Positions 37,986 through 57,299 of a stretch of 64,000 bases of DNA are shown here, in pieces. The notes beneath the pieces were generated by a model. The model was given only the letters and a program-made list of their open reading frames with translations, was not told the origin of the DNA and made no database searches. The position numbers were made by a program, and so were the translations under genes. Within the stretch, counting starts at the first letter, position 1, and each line of letters opens with the position of its first letter. This DNA comes from Peribolospora baueri (taxonomy: Eukaryota), in assembly GCA_029717555.1 (NCBI GenBank), contig JAMDHS010000027.1:62001-126000 (forward strand). The letters are read 5' to 3'.

Positions 37986-38032
37986 GTGAGTGAGTGAGTG
38001 AGTGAGTGAGTGAGTGAGTGAGTGAGTGAGTG
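37986..38032 (+). repeat. (GTGA)n tetranucleotide microsatellite, about 11.75 units
   Basis: Read directly: GTGAGTGAGTGA...GTG, following a long pyrimidine tract. Confidence 0.95.
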
Positions 38033-42094: not shown

Positions 42095-45000
42095 ATGCCG
42101 CATGTCGCGCGTCCCTTGCCTTGCTTGTCCTGGACATTGCTCATCGCCGCCCTCGTCGCCCTCTTCGCCTTCCTCGCCTCCCATCCTCCTTCCCTCGTCA
42201 CTCAGCTCCGTCCCCTTTCTCATCTAGGGACACGCTCGACGACCACCGCACGCCGCTTCTCCTCCCTCGCCGCCATGTCCGCCCCCGCCCCCGCCCCCAC
42301 GTCTTCCCACGTTCCCGCAGATGCAAGTTCAGATGGAAAGGACGACCCCTTCCGCCTTCCAAAGCATGTCAGGCCGGTACACTATGATTTGACGGTCAAG
42401 ACGGATTTGGAGAACCTTAAGTATGATGGGTTTGTTGAGATTGAGTGAGTGGGCGAGCGTCTTTCCTCGGTCTCCGCACCGTCTCATGCCGCCCGCACCG
42501 TCTCACGCCGCCGTGCATCGATCGTGTGTGTCGTCGTCGTGGTCGCCGGTCGCCGCTTCGTTCAGCATCGACATCCTCCAGCCCACCTCGACGATCGTCC
42601 TCAACGCCGCATCGCCGCTCCGCGTGACGGCCGCAAGGGTGTCCAGCACGGCGCTCAAGACGGACCAGACGATGAACGTCGAGGTCGTGTCAGATAAACA
42701 GCGCGAGCGCGTCACTCTGTCTTTACCCCCTGGTACGCTCCTTCACCCTGGCTCCAAGGCCAAGGTGTGGGCGTCGTACGAGGCCGAGCTGACCAAGGAT
42801 ATCATGGGTGAGTGATGAGTGGGCGCACAGGACTGGACGGCCGGGCAGGGTGTTGGGTGTAAGAGAGCGCGGCGCCAGCCTTTATTCTTCTCCTTTCCCC
42901 CGCGCCCCTTCCGCAGGCTATTACCGGTCGACGTGGGAGCACGAGAGCAAGAAAGGGTGGATGGCCATCACCCAGTTCGAGCCCACCGCTGCCCGGCGCG
43001 CGTTCCCTTGCTGGGACGAGCCGGAGCTCAAGGCCACCTTTGAGATTACCATGATACACAAGAAGGTCAGTCCCCCCGCATTCTTCCCGCCCCGTCAGCG
43101 CCCACGTTGAAGCTCCATCCTCTTCCCTCCTTCCCCTTTTTTCAGGACACCGTGGCCCTGTCCAACACGCCCGCTGTATCCTCAGCCCCACTGTCCACCG
43201 CTCAAGGTCAGAGCTTGCTCAAGACCGAGGGCAAGACCGAGGGCAAGACCGAGAAGGGCACCGCAGAGGACTCGGATTGGGTCGTGACAAAGTATGAGCG
43301 TACGCCCAAGATGAGCACCTACCTTGTTGCTTATGCCAATGGTAAGTTTGCTATGAATGAAGGACTGGTGGGGTGGCCTGGGACGCTGATTCGCTTTCTC
43401 CCTTTGCCCTCCTCCTTCTCCCCTCAGGCCCGTTCAAGCATCTCGAAAGCTCGTTTACCAGCCCGCTCACCGGCAAGCAGGTGCCGATTCGCTTTTACGG
43501 TGAGTCCACCCCCCTTTTCCTCGTCGTCGCCCGTTCCGCACTCATCCCCGTCCGGCCCGCTCGCAGCCACGCCCGAGTACATCCACCAGGGCCACTTCGC
43601 CCTCGAGGTTACTGCAAAGATCATGCCGGTGCTCGAAAAGATCTTTGACATTCCTTACCCGCTCGCCAAGCTCGATACGCTCGTCGCGTCCGACTTTGAC
43701 GCCGGCGCGATGGAGAACTGGGGCCTCATCACTGGTCGAGCCTCCATCTACCTCTACGACCCTGAAAAGTCCGGCTTGGCGGCCAAGAAAGCGACCGCTG
43801 GCGTGCAGTCTCACGAGTGCAGCCACATGTGGTTCGGTGAGTGCTTTTTTTGTCATTCGGCACCGGCCCCGCCTGACGTGCCGCGCTGTCCTTTCTTGAA
43901 AAAAAAAAAAAGGCAATATCGTCACCATGAATTGGTGGGAGCAGTTGTGGCTCAACGAAAGGTGAGACGACGCGGTCCGATCGTCGTCTTTGCCGTCGTT
44001 GCTCACGAATCTGCGTTCCCGCCCTTCTCCAGCTTTGCCACTCTCATGGGCGAGGTGATCGTACTGGACCGGATCTTCCCCGAGTGGAAGTCTTCGTCCG
44101 AGTTTATCGTTCACCACCTCGACCGCGCCCTCGACCTTGACTCGAAGCGGAGCAGTCACCCTATCGAGGTGCCTCTTGAGGGCGAGAACGTTGAGGATGC
44201 TATCAACCAGGTCTTTGACGCCATCAGCTACAGTCTGTAATCCTCCTCTCTCCTCTTTCTGTCGCGAACTACGTGAGCTGACGACCGCGCACATCTCGCA
44301 TGCAGGCAAGGGCGCGTCGGTGCTGCGCATGCTCAGCAACCAGCTCGGCCAGGAGACCTTCCTGAAGGGCGTCAGCATCTACCTCAAGAAGCACCTCTAC
44401 GGTAACGCCGTGTCCACCGATCTCTGGAACGGCATCTCCGAGGCGAGCGGGCTCGACGTTGCCAAGATTATGAAGAACTGGACGCTCAAGGTGAGTTCCC
44501 CCTGGCGCGACCCTAACCATCGATGGGAAATCTCATCAGCCCTCCGTCTCCTTTGATCGCAGGTTGGTTTCCCCGTCGTGACGGTCACGGAGGAGGAGGA
44601 CGGCCTTCGCATCCGTCAGAATCGGTTCCTTAGCACCGGCGATCTCAGGCCGGAAGAGAATACCACGCTCTGGTACGTCCCTCTCGAGCTCAAGACCGTT
44701 GGGCCCAACGGCCCGGTCGTCCAACACGATGCCGTCCTGGACGAGGAGCGGGAAAAGTTCCTGCCGCTCCCCAACGCCAAGCAGGCCACCTTTAAGCTCA
44801 ACGCGGAGACGACGGGCGTGTATCGCGTGGCCTACACGCCCGAGCGCCTCTCCAAGCTGGGCGAAGAGGCGGCCAAGCCGGACTCTGCGTTCACCGTCGA
44901 CGACCGTCTCGGCCTCGTCTCCGATGCCGTGACGCTCGCCCAGAGCGGCTACTCCAAGACTAGCGGCGCGCTCAACCTGATCGACAAGCTCAAGGGCGAC

Positions 45001-45950
45001 GACGCCTATTTGGTGAAGAGCGCCATCAGCGGTCACATGGCCTCGCTCGTCAGCGTCTGGTGGGAGCAGCCCGACCAAGGTGAGTGACCCCGCCGTTTCG
45101 AGCCCAAGCCGAACGATTCGATCGATCGATCGATCGGAGCTGTCTACTGAAAACGCTTTCGAACCGTAGTGCGATCCTCCATCAACGCCTTCCGCCGGGA
45201 CATCTTCGGACCGCTCGCTGAAAAGCTCGGCTTCGAGGTCGGAAAGGACGACGACGCAGAGCTCCGTCAGCTTCGCTCCGCTACCATCGCCGCCGCAGCC
45301 GCCGCGGGCCACGAGCCGTGAGTAAGGAACCTGAACGTGGTCGTTGGGCCTCTTTCTCCGGCGACGCTTTAGGCCGCCGCGTCACTCACGTCGGCTTCCC
45401 TCCTGTCCTTCGGTCACACAGGACCCTTCGCGAGATTCAGAGGCGGTTCAAGTTGTTTATGGAAGGCGACCAGTCGGCGGTGCCGGGTGACCTTCTCAGG
45501 TGCGTCCCACGTCCTCCTCCCGCCTTCTGTCTGTCCGCCCGTCCGTCCGTCCGTCTTTTAATCCCGGTCGCTGAGATTTGTCGGGACCCTTCTCCAGGAC
45601 CATCTTTGTCGAGTCTGCCAAGCACGGCGGCGAGAAGGAGTACGACTTCCTCCTCTCCGTGATCGGCAAGCCTGCGACGCAACAGCAGAAGGTCCTTGCC
45701 ATGCTGGCGCTCGGATGGACGCAGGATGAGGCGCTCATTGGTGGGTACGAGCGAGGGAAATGAAGCCAGTCGTCTTGTCCCCCCCTTCCCCCGCCCGGCC
45801 TGCTGACCGAATCGAGTCGTGTCGTGCATGCGTATGGGACGTTTGGACAGAGCGGACGCTCAAGTACACCTTCAGCGACGAGGTCAAGGAGCAAGACTTG
45901 ATGTACTTCTTCGCCTCGCTCGCCGCCAAGTGAGCACGCTGGACGTTGTG

Positions 45951-47110: not shown

Positions 47111-47421
47111 GCAGTCACGCTCGGCTAATTCGGGACGGTGATCGCTGCTGCGGCGTATCGCGGATGGACACCGGCCGGGAGAAGGGTTGAGGCGGACGAG
47201 TGCGGGGGGTGAACCGAAGGTGAATGCTTGCCGGGTTCACTTTCACCCCGAACGAACGGAAATCGGATGGCCAAAGTCGTCCCCCGATTCTCTCTGGCCG
47301 GTTCATCTCCCTCACGTCCTCCGATTCTCTCCAGCCGATCCATCTCCCTCCACCCGCACCACCACACCCTTTCCTCCCACTTCCACCCCAGTCAGCCTCT
47401 CTTGCTCCACGGCACAGCACC

Positions 47422-49479
47422 ATGTCCTTCCGCGCCTCTCCCGTCGTCCGCTCTGGACTTCAGAATATCCTCAAGAAGCGGCCTGATGATGTCGTCTTCG
47501 TCACCGCCCTTCGCACGCCTATCGCAAGAATAAAGAAGGGTTTCAAGGATGTGTGAGTTCACTCAGCGGCGCACCCGGCAATTGGGTTGCGAAGAATGTT
47601 AAGGAGATCTGGGATAAGTGACGTATTTCGCATTTCTGACCGTTGCAAAACGATCTTGAATTTTTATTGTTTTCTGTTTGTGCATTCGACAGGGTGAGTG
47701 GCTTTCTTATTTAGAGCTCGCGCTCGCCGGCTTCGCATTCTGGAAGGCCGCGTTTCTGAACGTCCCCATGCTTCACTTATCCTTGTCTTCCTACGTATCA
47801 GTACCCAGAGGAGCTTCTTGTGCACGTCTTGCGTGAGACGAGGCTTCGCCTCGAGTCCCAAGGCGTGAACCCTCAACTGATCGAGGACATTGCTACCGGT
47901 ACGGTGCTAATGGAGCTCGGCGGCGCAAAGTCCGGCAGGATGGCCGCTCTGCACGCCGGCATGCCCATCACTTCTGCATACCGCTCTGTAAACCGCCAAT
48001 GCAGCTCAAGCTTGCAGACCATCACCGACATTGCACAGAGCATCATATCCGGTTCGATTGACGTTGGCGTGGCTGCTGGCGTGGAGAGCATGACCCGAAA
48101 CTACGGCGTGAGTGGTCCTAACCTCCCCTCTTTCTTTCAATTCTCTCATCCCTTCGAAGCAAAACTAGTGATTTGATTTTTTCCGTCATGGCTAACTGTT
48201 TGTGTTTCGTCTACCCCTCCTAAATGGCTCCTCAGACGCGTGCCATTCCTGTAGACCTGTCGCCTACTCTGAAGAACAGCCCGAATGAGCACGCTCGCGA
48301 CTGCATCCTTCCCATGGGCATCACGAGCGAGGCTGTGGCTGAGAAGTGAGCTTTTCCTTTCCATCCTTTCAGAAAAATGGTGGTGATCTCCCGCACGCAA
48401 CTCGAATGCGTTTTGCCTTCACATCGCGCCTCTTTGAAGGACAAAGAGCTGACGTGCTCGTTTCTTTTCGTCCATTTCGTCCCCTGTCGCCAAAAGATAT
48501 GATGTAGGCCGCGAGCGCCAGGACGAGTTTGCGCTGCAGTCGCACCTCAAGGCTTCAGCGGCACAAAAAGACGGCCGATTGGCCTCGGAGATCGTACCGA
48601 TCAAAGTACGGCACATCGCCGAGGACGGCACGGAAAGCGAAAAGCTGGTTGAGCTTGACGAAGGCATTCGACACACCATTTCGCTCGAGAAGCTCTCTCA
48701 GCTCAAGCCGGTCTTTAAGGAGACCGGTGCGAGCACCGCAGGCAACTCGAGCCAGGTCAGCGACGGTGCTGTCGCTCTTACAATGGCCAGGAGGAGCGTT
48801 GCGGAGAGAGAAGGCATGCAGATCCTTGGCAAGTGGGTCGGTGCCGTTACGGTTGGCGTCGAGCCCAAGTTGATGGGTGAGTCTTTTCACGTCCTCAGTG
48901 TTGGCGTGCTGACGCAATCGGCAAGTGAGAGAGCATTGTCTAAAGACATGTACTTGACATCCCATTTTAGGCATCGGCCCCGCCTATGCGACCCCGAAGT
49001 TGCTCCAGCGCTACCAGCTCGGAGTGAAGGACGTGGACTTTTACGAGTTGAATGAAGGTACGTATCCTTTCTTTTGATGGCAAGCTTTGTACGCGAACCG
49101 CCGTACGCGCTCGACTTATCTTTGTTCTCCCTCTTCCTTAGCCTTTGCGAGCCAGTCGCTAATGACGATTGACCATGTCGGTCTTCCGATGGATAGGGTC
49201 AATCCGAAAGGCGGAGCCATTGCGCTTGGGTAAGTGTTCCTTCGTGCCTCGTCGCTGCAACCAGTCTCCCTCCAGACTCTAATAAAGCTTTTTTTTTCTG
49301 TGTACCCCCCCGTCGTCCCCTTTTCTCTTTTCCTTAGACATCCTCTTGGCGCGACCGGCGGTCGTCTTGTCACGTCGCTCCTTACCGAGCTCCGCCGTAC
49401 CGGCAAGGACGTCGGCGTCGCGACTCTTTGCTGTGGAACCGGGTACGGCAAAGCGTCTCTCGTCGTCGCCGAGCTCTAA
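47422..49479 (+). CDS. 3-ketoacyl-CoA thiolase, probably mitochondrial (MthA-like), with a probable 1-nt exon at 47693
   Basis: DDVVFVTALRTPI, FKD(V)YPEELL, catalytic NRQCSS, GVESMT, STAGNSSQVSDG, NEAFASQ, GGAIALGHPLGATG and LCCGTG. Arg/Ser-rich N-terminus MSFRASPVVRSG; no PTS1 or PTS2. Confidence 0.93.
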
Positions 49480-50103: not shown

Positions 50104-51461
50104 TCAACCATCCTTGTCAGACATGGCTTCCGAGTCGTAGCCATCGTCGTCCTCCGCCTCGCCCTCGCCCTCGCCCTCGCCTTCGCCTTCGCCTCCGCCT
50201 CGGCCTTCGTCGTGAGTTGCGTCGGACGCCTTTACAAATGTCCTCCACCATCGGCCAAGGAACTTTTTGACGTCCGAGCCGAGGCCAAGGTACTCGGCGT
50301 TGCTCACCAGGCCTATCCATCGCGCTTGCCCTTGCGCAAGAGAGCATTCTAAGACGCTGAGGTCGCCGAAGTAGAGGTACTGGAGGATAAAGATGAACGA
50401 GGCAGGGTCGGGGAGAGGGAGGAGAACGACTGGCCTGTCTGTTGGAGAGGAAAGGAGTCGAGGTGCCTCGGCCGGCGTAATCGACTTTCGGTGCGCGAGT
50501 GGGAGTCGGCTGGGCCAGGGTGGTGTCGGGCTGCCTGGAAGAGACATCGGTAACGAAGGTAACGAGGTCGACGTCGTTGGGGCGGCGCTCAAGGAATCCA
50601 GGGTGCCCGAACTGCAGAGTAAGTCTCGCTAAAGACGCGATCACAGCCCCGGATCGCAAGGCAATAACAAGGAACAAGGATCAGTCGGCTGTCTGTCTTG
50701 AAGTAAACCTCCGTTTGGTGTGGCGCAGAGAGAAGGTGGAGATGGGCCGAGTACGTTTTACTTACCAGCAATACGCTCTGTATAACGAGATAGTCCTTGT
50801 GCAACTGGAAGGTTAAGCTGTTACTGGAAGTTGAACTCGACTTGTCGTCCAAGTCTGACGACGGAAAGTGCGCTGATGATCGGCTCTCGAGACGTAGCGA
50901 AGGCGTCATGGCTGGAAACCGGAGGTCATCCGTTGGTGGGGACATGCTCGGCGGACTTGAGCCTGGAAAGAAATTCATGGCGTGGTGTGGGCTCGCCCCA
51001 AACGCTCGGATGTCGGGCGATCCGGAGGATCTTCGGAAAAGGCTACTGTCGTCGACGGGAACGATGACGGTACAGTCCGACGTCTCGTCTCGGCCCCAGA
51101 AATAGCCCGCGAGCGCATTGAGACTGTCAATGACGTACGGCAGCGGTACGCTCTCGAGGTTGTCTGGGTCGAGCTGTACCTCCAGCGACAAGGTTGGGGA
51201 CGGTGATGGCGGTCCCAACGACGACGGAGAGGACGATGGTTTTCGAGCCGCGCTGGATCGAGGCTTGTCCCAGTCCATCATCATTTGCGCGGCCGTACCG
51301 GTACCTGTGCTTGGTGCGCTCGCCGGCTTTGGAGCCGGGGCCAGCACGGAGAAGCTGACGTTCCCTTGCGGCACGGTTGGCAGCGTGTTGGTGATGACTC
51401 TCAAGGCGTCGGCTCGAGAAAGAGTGTGCCAGAGCTCAGATCCGGGGGCGGCGGCGACCAT
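50104..51461 (-). CDS. BTB/POZ-like domain protein of unknown function; exons 51461-50766, 50628-50104
   Basis: TSDCTVIV...FQLHKDYLVIQSVLL|RDLL...LPLPDPASFIFILQYLYFGD...LVSNAEYLGL matches a BTB-fold pattern with large insertions. GTAAGT donor and TAG acceptor are in phase. Confidence 0.65.
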
Positions 51462-54230: not shown

Positions 54231-57101
54231 TCAAGCAGTCGGCTGGACGGTAAGGGCAGCCATGTCCGGCAGATCTTCTATGCGCTCGATGAGCTGCAAA
54301 ATGCGCAGGAAGAACACAGACAGACGTAATCAGCTTTGTTTTTATCGCAAAGCGCGCATGACCACCTAATCATTCCATCTCGTCAAAGCGAGATCGTGTT
54401 GCTCACCTTGGTGACTTTGCCGACTGCGATCGTCTTTCCCTCGTCTCGAAGGGTGAAACGACCAAGCTGTGGAGCAAGCATGCGAATATAAGTAAGTAAG
54501 CGAGCGAGCGACACGATCGTTTGATGGTTCGATAGGCAAGTCTGTGGACGAGCAAGGTCAAACGCCGCTCACCTGAGGGTAGTCGGAGAACTTTTCGATG
54601 CAAATCGGAGCCGTCGTTTCGATGAGCGCGACGACCTTTTGACCTGTATAGGGCAGCACGGATACGGAGACCAACGACCTAGTCAATAAAGTTCCGTGAA
54701 CGCGGAATTACGCGAGTACAACTACGAGTGTCGAAGATGGCCCGCACCCTTTTTCGCGAACTGCGGCGGTCGCTTCGACTTCCTTCCCGTCTTCCTGTCG
54801 AAGTAGTGGAGAAGGGACTGGTGTGATCGTATCGACGATGTCGCACAGAAGATGCGAAGGACGAAAATCGAGTGAGCGAAAACTATCCATCCAAGGTCGA
54901 CGGAGGAAAAGGGGAAAGGAAGAGAGGTCCCTCACGTTGATCGTGATCTCCTCAGCGAGAGTGTGAATGTGCATAACGGCGCTATAACCTGCGGTGATGA
55001 TGTTCTTACTCTCGAGGATGGCCAGCTGGGCCTCAAACTGGGTGACGGCGTGCACGGGCTGGCGCACATCGGTGAGCACGAAACCGACCGAGACATCCTC
55101 GTCGTCGACGCCCTTCAACCGGATGCGCACGTTGTCGCCGCAGATGGCCGCAGGGACTTCGTCTTCCATTTCGTTCATGATAGCAGTGGCTTCCACGTTG
55201 ACCTGCGAGGACGAAGAATGAAGGACGAACGCGGCGTGAGCAATGGCCCGAACGCAGGAGAACATACACGAGCCCGCCAAGCAGGAGAAATCAGTCACCT
55301 TGTTGGGCATCAACAACAGCTGGTCGCCTCTCTTGATCTTGCCCGCCTCCAGCTTCCCTACGACGATCGTGCCCATCTCCTTGTACTTCTCCGAAATGGG
55401 CATCTTCATCGGCGCATGGAGCTTGCGGTCCTGCATGGGCAGGTCGTCGAGATACTCGAGCAACGAGGCGCCGCTGAAGGGGAATCGAAAGATGCAGTCA
55501 GGTACGTGGCCGGGTCAGGCGCGATTAATTTAGGGCTAGGGATTATGAAGCCCGCTCACGCAGGAAAGCCTACTCACTTCCACCAGGGGGCCACGTCCTT
55601 GGACACGCGGTCCTTGAGGTTTTGACCCGCATACGCTGAGACGGGAATGAAATGCAGGTCCGTCTTCGGATTGAAGCCGGAGGCGCGCAGGAACGGCGTG
55701 AGCTTGGACTCTATCTCATCATACCTTATCGAAATAGAACGGGAAGGTTGAGAAGTTAGCTTTGGAAGAGAGGACTCGATCGAAGGAGACAAATGGAGAA
55801 GACAACAACCTACCTCTCCTTGCTCCACTCCACGGTGGGGTCGTCCATCTTGTTGATGACCACAATAACCTTCTGCACGCCGGCAGTCTTGACCAGCATG
55901 GCGTGCTCACGAGTCTGACCGCCCTTCTCGAAACCGGTCTCAAACTCGCCTCTGCGCGCCGAAATAACCTTAATCACGACGAGTGTCCGTTCACCATCAG
56001 CGAGAAGCTGGCCGGGACCAGGCGAAGCAAAAAGGAGACTAAAGAATCGTCACTCACGAGGATGGCGATATCCGCCTGAGCGGCACCGCTGATCATGCTG
56101 GGGACGAAGTTCTTGTGACCAGGAGCATCGAGAATGGTGTATCGCCTCTTTCCGGTCTCGAAATAAGCCCTGCCAACTTCCACAGTCTTTCCCTTGGCGC
56201 GTTCTTGGGGGGTCGAGTCAAGGGCCCAGGAGAGGTACCACGACTCTCGACCGGCCTCCTTGGCCTCCTTCTCGTACTTCTCCATCGTACGCTTGTCCAC
56301 CATGCCGCAGAGATAGAGGATGTTGCCGCCCATCGTAGACTTGCCGGCGTCGACGTGGCCGATGAACACGACGTTCAAGTGCGTTTTGACTGCGTATGGA
56401 GAGTGAAACAAGGTATGACGCATGTGTATCCTTTTCAACAATGACAAGCTCGTTCTCGGCAAAATGAACGACTTACGCTCCTCTCCGAGATCGCCGTACA
56501 GGTCTTTCAGAGTCTCCTCATCCGCCACCTCCTTGGTCTGTTCCAGCACCGTGTCCTGGTTGTTCGCCGAAACTTCTGACACTCTCGTTGGCGGCTTGGT
56601 GGCACTGTCACTGGCGCTCTTGGAGACTGGTTCGCGATCCTGAGAGGCGGCGCGGGGAGGCGTTGATGAAGCGCTCTTGGCCCCGCCACCGATGGAGATA
56701 GACACGGGAGCGCGATTCTGAGCCGCCGCCCCAGCGGGGGGAGGCGTTGACGAAGAGCTCTGAGAATCGCCGATGGAAAGGGAAACGGGAGCGCGGTTCT
56801 GGGCGGCCGCTCCAGCGGGGGCAGGCGGTACGGGTGAAGGGCTCTGATAACCGCCGATGGAAAGGGAAACGGGAGCGCGGTTCTGGGCGGCCGCTCCAGC
56901 GGGAGCAGGTGGTACGGGTGAAGGGCTCTGATAACCGCCGATGGAAAGGGAAACGGGAGCACGGTTCTGAGCCGCCGCTCCGGCCGGAGGAGGTGGAGTA
57001 GGCGTGGGTGAAGGACCTTGGCTGGGTGGTCCACCTGGGCCGCCGAAGTTGAAGGCCCGTGCGTTCGGGTTGAAGGAGAAAGGGCGTGCGTTCGGGTTCA
57101 T
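54231..57101 (-). CDS. SUP35: Translation termination factor eRF3 (Sup35)
   Basis: NVVFIGHVDAGKSTMGG, RESWYLSWALD, LDAPGHK, NKMDD, PQLGRFTLRDEGKTIAVGKVTK. Last exon 54293-54231. N-terminal PAM2-like MNPNARPF and NPNARAF. Confidence 0.97.
56645..56990 (-). repeat. Coding tandem repeat in the eRF3 N-domain: four units with periods of 84, 84 and 81 bp
   Basis: The plus-strand anchor ATGGA recurs at 56692, 56773, 56857 and 56941. Peptide unit AGAAAQNRAPVSLSIGGYQSPSPVPPAP. Confidence 0.95.
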
Positions 57102-57299
57102 GGCGGACTGCTGCCGACGGAAGGCAAGAGAGGGAAGGAAGTAGGGCGATCAAGGTTTCCCAAGTTTTTGTGGAGCACCGAATGCCTCTCTGAACAGGCG
57201 ATGGAGGGATGGAGAAGTGGGAAGTGCTGGAGGTGATCTTCGCCTCGCAAGTCGACCTGACGATAGGCGAAAAGGTTCGAGCGCCCTTCGACTGCGGGT

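Follow-up and report, generated by a model that had tools for sequence, protein, structure and literature searches.

The 64,000 nucleotides (nt) of Peribolospora baueri DNA analysed here, which we call the window (GenBank assembly GCA_029717555.1, contig JAMDHS010000027.1, positions 62,001 to 126,000 of the forward strand), carry a thiolase gene on the plus strand at window positions 47422-49479, with its ATG at 47422 and its stop codon at 49477-49479. Within this gene a lone G at position 47693 is flanked by two introns, A and B, and is probably a constitutive single-nucleotide exon of an intact gene. The homology-guided gene model that includes the G has 7 introns, a coding sequence (CDS) of 1245 nt and a product of 414 amino acids. 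The parts of the gene are listed below, with a slash marking each splice junction.

47422-47552, plus strand: coding part of exon 1 (MSFRAS...KKGFKD), followed by GT, the first two bases of a split Val codon
47553-47692, plus strand: intron A, 140 nt, phase 2, with donor TGT/GTGAGT, a T-rich tract and acceptor CAG/G
47693, plus strand: proposed single-nucleotide exon, G, the third base of the Val codon GT+G
47694-47801, plus strand: intron B, 108 nt, phase 0 between the Val and Tyr codons, with donor AGG/GTGAGT and acceptor CAG/TAC
47802-48107, plus strand: exon after intron B (YPEELLVHV...MTRNYG), part of Thiolase_N, with the NRQCSSS active-site region
48108-49479, plus strand: rest of the thiolase gene, comprising exons and the introns 48108-48235, 48346-48496, 48877-48970, 49058-49141 and 49230-49337
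47551-47556, plus strand: weak alternative donor GTGTGA, which with the acceptor at 47801 would give KD-YPEELL and a 251-nt intron

Comparison of the exon translations with Pfam returns Thiolase_N (PF00108, E = 2e-22 and 4.9e-29) and Thiolase_C (PF02803, E = 3.2e-12). The 414-residue model is identical to the homologue P0003 in 301 of 415 alignment columns, and at the N-terminus it lines up with Ustilaginomycotina thiolases, P0003 among them, with no gap. NRQCSSS, GHPLGATG and LCCGTGYG are all present in the model and align with P0003; we take the NRQC motif to contain the catalytic Cys, and GHPLG and CxG to be the C-terminal thiolase motifs. The best solved relatives of P0003 are the peroxisomal thiolases 2c7y, 2wu9, 2iik and 1afw. 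Because the domains are accompanied by full-length similarity to named acetyl-CoA C-acyltransferases, the gene belongs with the thiolases, and its product is predicted to be a peroxisomal-type 3-ketoacyl-CoA thiolase (acetyl-CoA C-acyltransferase). Once the G is included, the frame of the remaining 1.2 kilobases (kb) of coding sequence is intact relative to the homologues, and no signs of pseudogene decay are seen in the frame or motifs of the gene when it is compared with them.

Reading frame and protein spacing at the first junction

Exon 1 ends ...AAG GAT GT at 47552 and is directly adjoined by GTGAGT (47553-47558). TTCTGAC follows at 47634-47640, then a T-rich tract and a CAG ending at 47692. 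The lone G at 47693 comes next, succeeded by a second GTGAGT at 47694-47699, a pyrimidine-rich tail and a CAG ending at 47801, and TAC CCA GAG GAG begins at 47802. When GT, G and TAC are joined, the codons read GAT GTG TAC, or Asp-Val-Tyr, and the resulting KD-V-YPEELL restores the KD-x-YPEELL spacing of the thiolase family. An earlier sequence-only reading of this locus had proposed a 1-nt exon at these same junctions, all of which are borne out base for base. It had also described a branch-like TTCTGAC 140 nt after the first donor; the motif is present, but it starts 81 nt after the donor, and 140 nt is the length of the whole of intron A.

An enumeration of single introns around the junction (17 GT x 14 AG) yields 13 combinations that are in frame and open. 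Only one of the 13, the pairing of GTGTGA at 47551 with the acceptor at 47801, preserves FKD as well as YPEELL, at the cost of one residue; the sequence-only reading had named it as the sole in-frame alternative, and among these pairings it is the only one that preserves the motif. It defines a rival explanation, in which one 251-nt intron is removed, the protein reads KD-YPEELL and the internal CAG-G-GTGAGT is coincidental. In favor of this explanation, it is the sole canonical in-frame single intron that preserves both flanking motifs; on the spacing and signal evidence below, we consider it very unlikely. The donor at 47553 has no AG partner in the same enumeration that preserves the frame by itself, and joining it directly to 47801, which skips the G, produces a frameshift and stop codons, as had been claimed.

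The two-intron enumeration, with a middle exon of 1-40 nt, gives 37 in-frame solutions. Only 47553-47692 / G / 47694-47801 yields KD-x-YPEELL with a single x, and this is also the only one of the 37 with two GTGAGT donors. A 4-nt exon, TGAC, with the donor GTATTT would give KDVDYPEELL and was rejected for its extra residue and its poor donor; every other micro-exon solution destroys the motif. The G lies directly between an AG and a GT, each of which is part of a complete intron, and it is required both for the frame and for the conserved protein spacing.

The spacing itself was assessed by searching proteins with the translation of the exon that begins at 47802, which gave 121 proteins at E <= 1e-10; the best 120 of the 121 were analysed. 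The closest matches among these 120 are Ustilaginomycotina acetyl-CoA C-acyltransferases with 78-81% identity, and the top-matching taxa are Pseudozyma flocculosa, Violaceomyces, Sporisorium, Thecaphora and Tilletiaria. This places the DNA in a basidiomycete close to Ustilaginomycotina that has no near relative among the database proteins. Each of the 120 homologues was aligned to both candidate N-termini. Exactly one residue stands between the D and Y columns in 118 of them (A in 68, M in 22, S in 17, T in 10 and Q in 1), one further homologue (P0021) has one residue plus a 22-residue in-frame insert, and the junction is uncovered in the last (P0120). No homologue of the 120 has zero residues there, as the product of the 251-nt intron would, so that the KD-x-YPEELL spacing on which the sequence-only reading relied holds in the family. 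The protein encoded with the 1-nt exon outscores the one-residue-shorter protein in 118 of 119 alignments. Likewise, when solved plant peroxisomal thiolases are compared with P0003, there is no gap at this place (FKDTYPDDLL vs fkdaypeell).

Genomic comparison with 21 metagenome loci that encode relatives of 44-71% identity leads to the same spacing, independently of any gene annotation. The codon after KD/RD is contiguous in genomic DNA at 17 of the 21: seven have K/R-D-x-YPEE uninterrupted, and ten have a contiguous KD-M-Y/H with an intron lying further downstream. The search pattern was unmatched at the other four, and no locus among the 21 has D and Y directly adjoining. The metagenome loci are without an intron at the junction position. 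We also note that five of the protein homologues (P0008, P0010, P0013, P0015 and P0017) run for ~310 residues from Met through the junction and then continue into unrelated tails after "...VMG". These look like open reading frame (ORF) calls through unspliced genomic DNA; if so, their species lack the KD-x-Y intron, yet have an intron at the same site as the one that begins at 48877.

Splice signals, intron lengths and order of removal

Signals were scored against a reference set of 18 introns from the window, 13 from an M1 aminopeptidase gene and 5 from the thiolase gene. The 13 M1 introns were placed by spliced protein-to-DNA alignment, in which introns carried a flat penalty and donors were not modelled, and each was accepted if it had the support of 3 or more of the 4 reference proteins; these reference proteins are ~31-76% identical per tblastn segment. 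The scores are as follows, with GT frequencies given for the plus strand.

Donor at 47694: 12.7 bits, a score as high being found in 0.11% of GTs
Donor at 47553: 7.9 bits, inside the leave-one-out reference range of 2.1-13.3
Donor GTGTGA at 47551: 0.8 bits, below 18 of 18 references and equalled or bettered by 21.6% of GTs
Acceptor at 47692: 5.2 bits, approximately the reference median
Acceptor at 47801: -1.4 bits, low yet in the reference range

The donor of the 251-nt intron had been called the weaker one, and the scores agree, since 0.8 bits is at background level against 7.9 bits for the donor only 2 nt downstream of it. GTGTGA does retain the G at +5, and its T at +4 and A at +6 each occur once among the 18 reference donors (GTCTGT and GTGAGA, respectively). 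GTGTGA is not enriched in the window, however (26 vs 27.3 expected), whereas GTGAGT is (60 vs 31.7 expected). A (GTGA)n microsatellite at 37986-38031 on the plus strand holds 11 overlapping copies of GTGAGT, and these 11 of the 60 inflate the window count. Length also speaks against the single intron. The reference introns measure 67-151 nt with a median of 92 nt, a range that includes both A (140 nt) and B (108 nt), while 251 nt exceeds the longest of the 18 by 100 nt.

The internal signals are those of complete introns. A branch-like CTGAC lies 53 nt from the 3' end of intron A, and the corresponding distances in introns 3, 4, 5 and 7 of the thiolase gene are 40, 44, 58 and 55 nt. Intron B has CTTAT 22 nt from its 3' end, and intron 6 has it at 23 nt. 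The sequence AGNGTGAGT occurs 6 times on the two strands of the window vs 2.03 expected from shuffles; arithmetic from the expected count gives a chance rate of ~0.004 per 250 nt of one strand, a figure that counts against the 251-nt single intron, within which such an internal AG-N-GTGAGT would be accidental. In the 18 reference introns, no internal donor-like GT is preceded by AG-N. Because the full second set of signals falls in the sole register that repairs the frame, an accident is unlikely. Spacing, signals, lengths and enumeration all support the 1-nt exon proposed in the sequence-only reading, and on this genomic evidence the G is likely to be carried into the mature mRNA.

Several points weigh against the single-nucleotide exon. 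The reference set is small (18 introns), and 13 of its members come from our own spliced alignment to references of ~31-76% identity. The acceptor of intron B is weak, with half of all AGs scoring -1.4 bits or better; this acceptor is required under every model. The closest homologue among those listed is only 81% identical, and the shorter protein, KD-YPEELL, might still function. Finally, Val is found at x in none of the 118 homologues with a single residue there, although its substitution for Ala, Thr or Met would be conservative.

A further explanation locates the anomaly in the DNA rather than in splicing. It supposes that one nucleotide is missing where exon 1 meets the intron, either from the deposited sequence or in this strain, the true sequence being ...GAT GTG/GTGAGT, or else that the gene is a fresh frameshift pseudogene. 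With a G added before 47553, an ordinary phase-0 intron of ~248 nt would give the same KDVYPEELL and no 1-nt exon, and that phase-0 position apparently bears an intron in the relative P0021. However, the other 1.2 kb of coding sequence is free of frame defects, which suggests that errors are few in this region, and no homopolymer is present at the site. The mid-interval signals (the 12.7-bit donor, the 5.2-bit acceptor, CTGAC and the T-tract) and the atypical length of 248 nt would, in addition, both have to be coincidences. We regard a deletion or fresh pseudogene as decidedly improbable.

If the G is an exon, the pre-mRNA would contain two complete, ordinary U2-type introns, A and B, one base apart. 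In fungi, introns as short as these are recognised across the intron. The 3' splice site of A (CAG/G) and the 5' splice site of B (AGG/GTGAGT) share bases, and this overlap means that both can hardly be occupied together, which points to removal of one after the other. Most likely, A and B would be removed sequentially by intron definition. Were A to be removed first, exon 1 plus the G would be placed before an intact GTGAGT; were B to be removed first, the acceptor of A would then precede G-TAC. Either order would lead to an identical product.

The same overlap, which sets A's acceptor in competition with B's donor, gives some grounds for a regulatory explanation in which inclusion of the G is partial and skipping from 47553 to 47801 acts as a splicing-level throttle on thiolase output. 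Skipping would bring stop codons soon past the junction. Against a throttle, we found no conserved element or stable RNA structure: the fold of 47540-47815 has z = -0.16, with 84 of 200 shuffles folding at least as well, so that RNA structure masking or exposing the splice sites was set aside, and a Rfam search of 47300-47950 gave no match at E <= 1, which also leaves a hosted non-coding RNA unsupported. The published 1-nt exons, moreover, are described either as constitutive (Arabidopsis APC11, PMC4674806) or, in the case of Fusarium CYP621A, as being spliced accurately in several different growth conditions (PMC12940212). We judge such a throttle, which is plausible but has nothing more in its favor, highly improbable.

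Origin of the two introns and features around the gene

The insert in P0021, a distant relative, bears on how A and B may have arisen. Its 22 in-frame residues lie exactly between x and Y, start with Val (GTN) and end with Gln, and the insert resembles a retained intron of 66 nt in phase 0, placed where intron B lies. Its location suggests that B may be old and A a later gain. It is possible, though doubtful, that B occupies an old phase-0 position, that A was gained later exactly 1 nt upstream, and that the locus captures one-nucleotide intron sliding at a living intermediate stage. If this were true, an intron in phase 2 would remain after loss of B and one in phase 0 after loss of A, by a route unlike the stwintron route proposed for Pezizomycotina, and the locus would offer a compact natural substrate for asking which of the two adjoining introns has to be excised first by the spliceosome.

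Two other origins were considered and set aside. A tandem duplication relating A and B was rejected because their similarity (global p = 0.05 and local p = 0.02, 200 shuffles) is not above that of several unrelated intron pairs of the gene, among them 1-3, 2-6 and 2-7; the only block common to A and B is 13 of 15 bases around the branch-like motif. An introner-like or otherwise repeated element was also rejected, as a blastn search of the window with A, B and A+G+B yielded a single 14-nt match with E = 0.019, the other matches, self aside, being 10-15 nt long with E ~0.05-6. The same three queries gave no blastn match in the 21 metagenome loci.

The M1-family aminopeptidase gene (AAP1 / aminopeptidase 2-like) lies directly upstream of the thiolase gene on the plus strand, at 42329-45930, and matches Peptidase_M1 and ERAP1_C in Pfam. 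Its introns number at least 13 and are short (67-121 nt), and the structure of its N- and C-terminal exons varied among the four reference proteins. On the minus strand, 54708-57149 contains ORFs with EF-Tu-type GTPase domains (GTP_EFTU, domain 2 and eEF1A-C-like), which probably belong to an eRF3/HBS1-like translation GTPase gene. Downstream of the thiolase gene, a low-complexity repeat at 50140-50270 encodes runs of PS, RL or EG, depending on the frame, and sits within long overlapping ORFs on both strands; the minus-strand ORFs that neighbour this repeat gave no match in Pfam.

Significance and comparison with known systems

The phenomenon, its AG/G/GT form and its likely mechanism are already in print, and the locus establishes no new category. 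What it contributes is a further entry on the short list of 1-nt exons, one that lies in a core enzyme of beta-oxidation and apparently in a lineage close to Ustilaginomycotina. It supports the view that such exons owe their apparent rarity in fungi to under-counting and are not genuinely exceptional. A 1-nt exon is beyond the reach of standard gene predictors, which for this thiolase would yield either a frameshift or a protein without a residue that all the relatives examined possess. The overlapping 3' and 5' splice sites make the junction a small and tractable test case for forced sequential splicing; its main value lies in annotation and as a substrate for the study of sequential splicing.

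Zero-nucleotide recursive splice sites, or ratchet points (AG/GTRAGT), are known from Drosophila and vertebrates, where the first ligation regenerates a 5' splice site. The junction described here shares with them a 3' splice site that abuts a 5' splice site, and would share stepwise removal. It differs in that ratchet points keep no base and lie in giant introns, whereas here one base would be kept, the donor is pre-formed and the introns are of 140 and 108 nt. We accordingly rejected a ratchet point, since the G separates the AG (47691-47692) from GTGAGT (47694) and the donor is complete on its own.

The sequence-only reading had called 1-nt exons very rarely reported, a description that needs updating now that fungal cases are in print, including Fusarium CYP621A (PMC12940212) and 13 genes of Coprinopsis cinerea (PMC12230235). 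The Fusarium report presents the 1-nt exon of CYP621A, of the form AG/G/GT and supported by RNA reads, as the first fungal case, and states that it was missed by public gene models (PMC12940212). Both loci have the AG/G/GT core and a single G that completes a codon within a conserved motif. Both have an interval of about twice the usual intron length, and in both the inference draws on a phase mismatch and on intron-less relatives. As described there, however, the Fusarium case is from Ascomycota and in a P450 gene, and its G occupies the second position of a Gly codon, compared with the third position of a Val codon here; its layout is also conserved in 24 genes and confirmed with 18 public RNA reads (PMC12940212), whereas ours is one locus read from genomic sequence.

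The long-read annotation of Coprinopsis cinerea lists 13 one-nucleotide exons in 13 genes and reports that omission of micro-exons often leads to premature stop codons (PMC12230235). That fungus is likewise a basidiomycete, but it belongs to Agaricomycetes, and its exons are given as derived from full-length transcripts (PMC12230235). No thiolase with a micro-exon was found among the inspected results of our literature search.

In Arabidopsis, the constitutive 1-nt exon of APC11 was proven, according to its report, by reporter constructs and base substitutions (PMC4674806). It shares with the thiolase junction one base between AG and GT that is essential for the frame, and its authors argue for intron definition with consecutive removal, the mechanism we infer here (PMC4674806). 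It differs in being from a plant, in having A as the exonic base and in a considerably longer first flanking intron, of 332 nt (PMC4674806).

The last comparison is with stwintrons and the 1-nt intron-shift model of Pezizomycotina, in which adjoining U2 introns are described as being removed by consecutive splicing reactions (PMC5587772). We rejected a stwintron, in which an internal intron splits the donor, branch site or acceptor of an external one, at this junction, as we found no G or A adjoining an internal GT...AG that rebuilds a plausible external splice site; the only nested reading of this kind relies on the weak external donor GTGGTG and leads to a product one residue shorter. The two arrangements share the property that loss of either intron would leave introns 1 nt apart, but, unlike in the stwintrons described in PMC5587772, the signals of each intron are here intact and an exon base lies between them.

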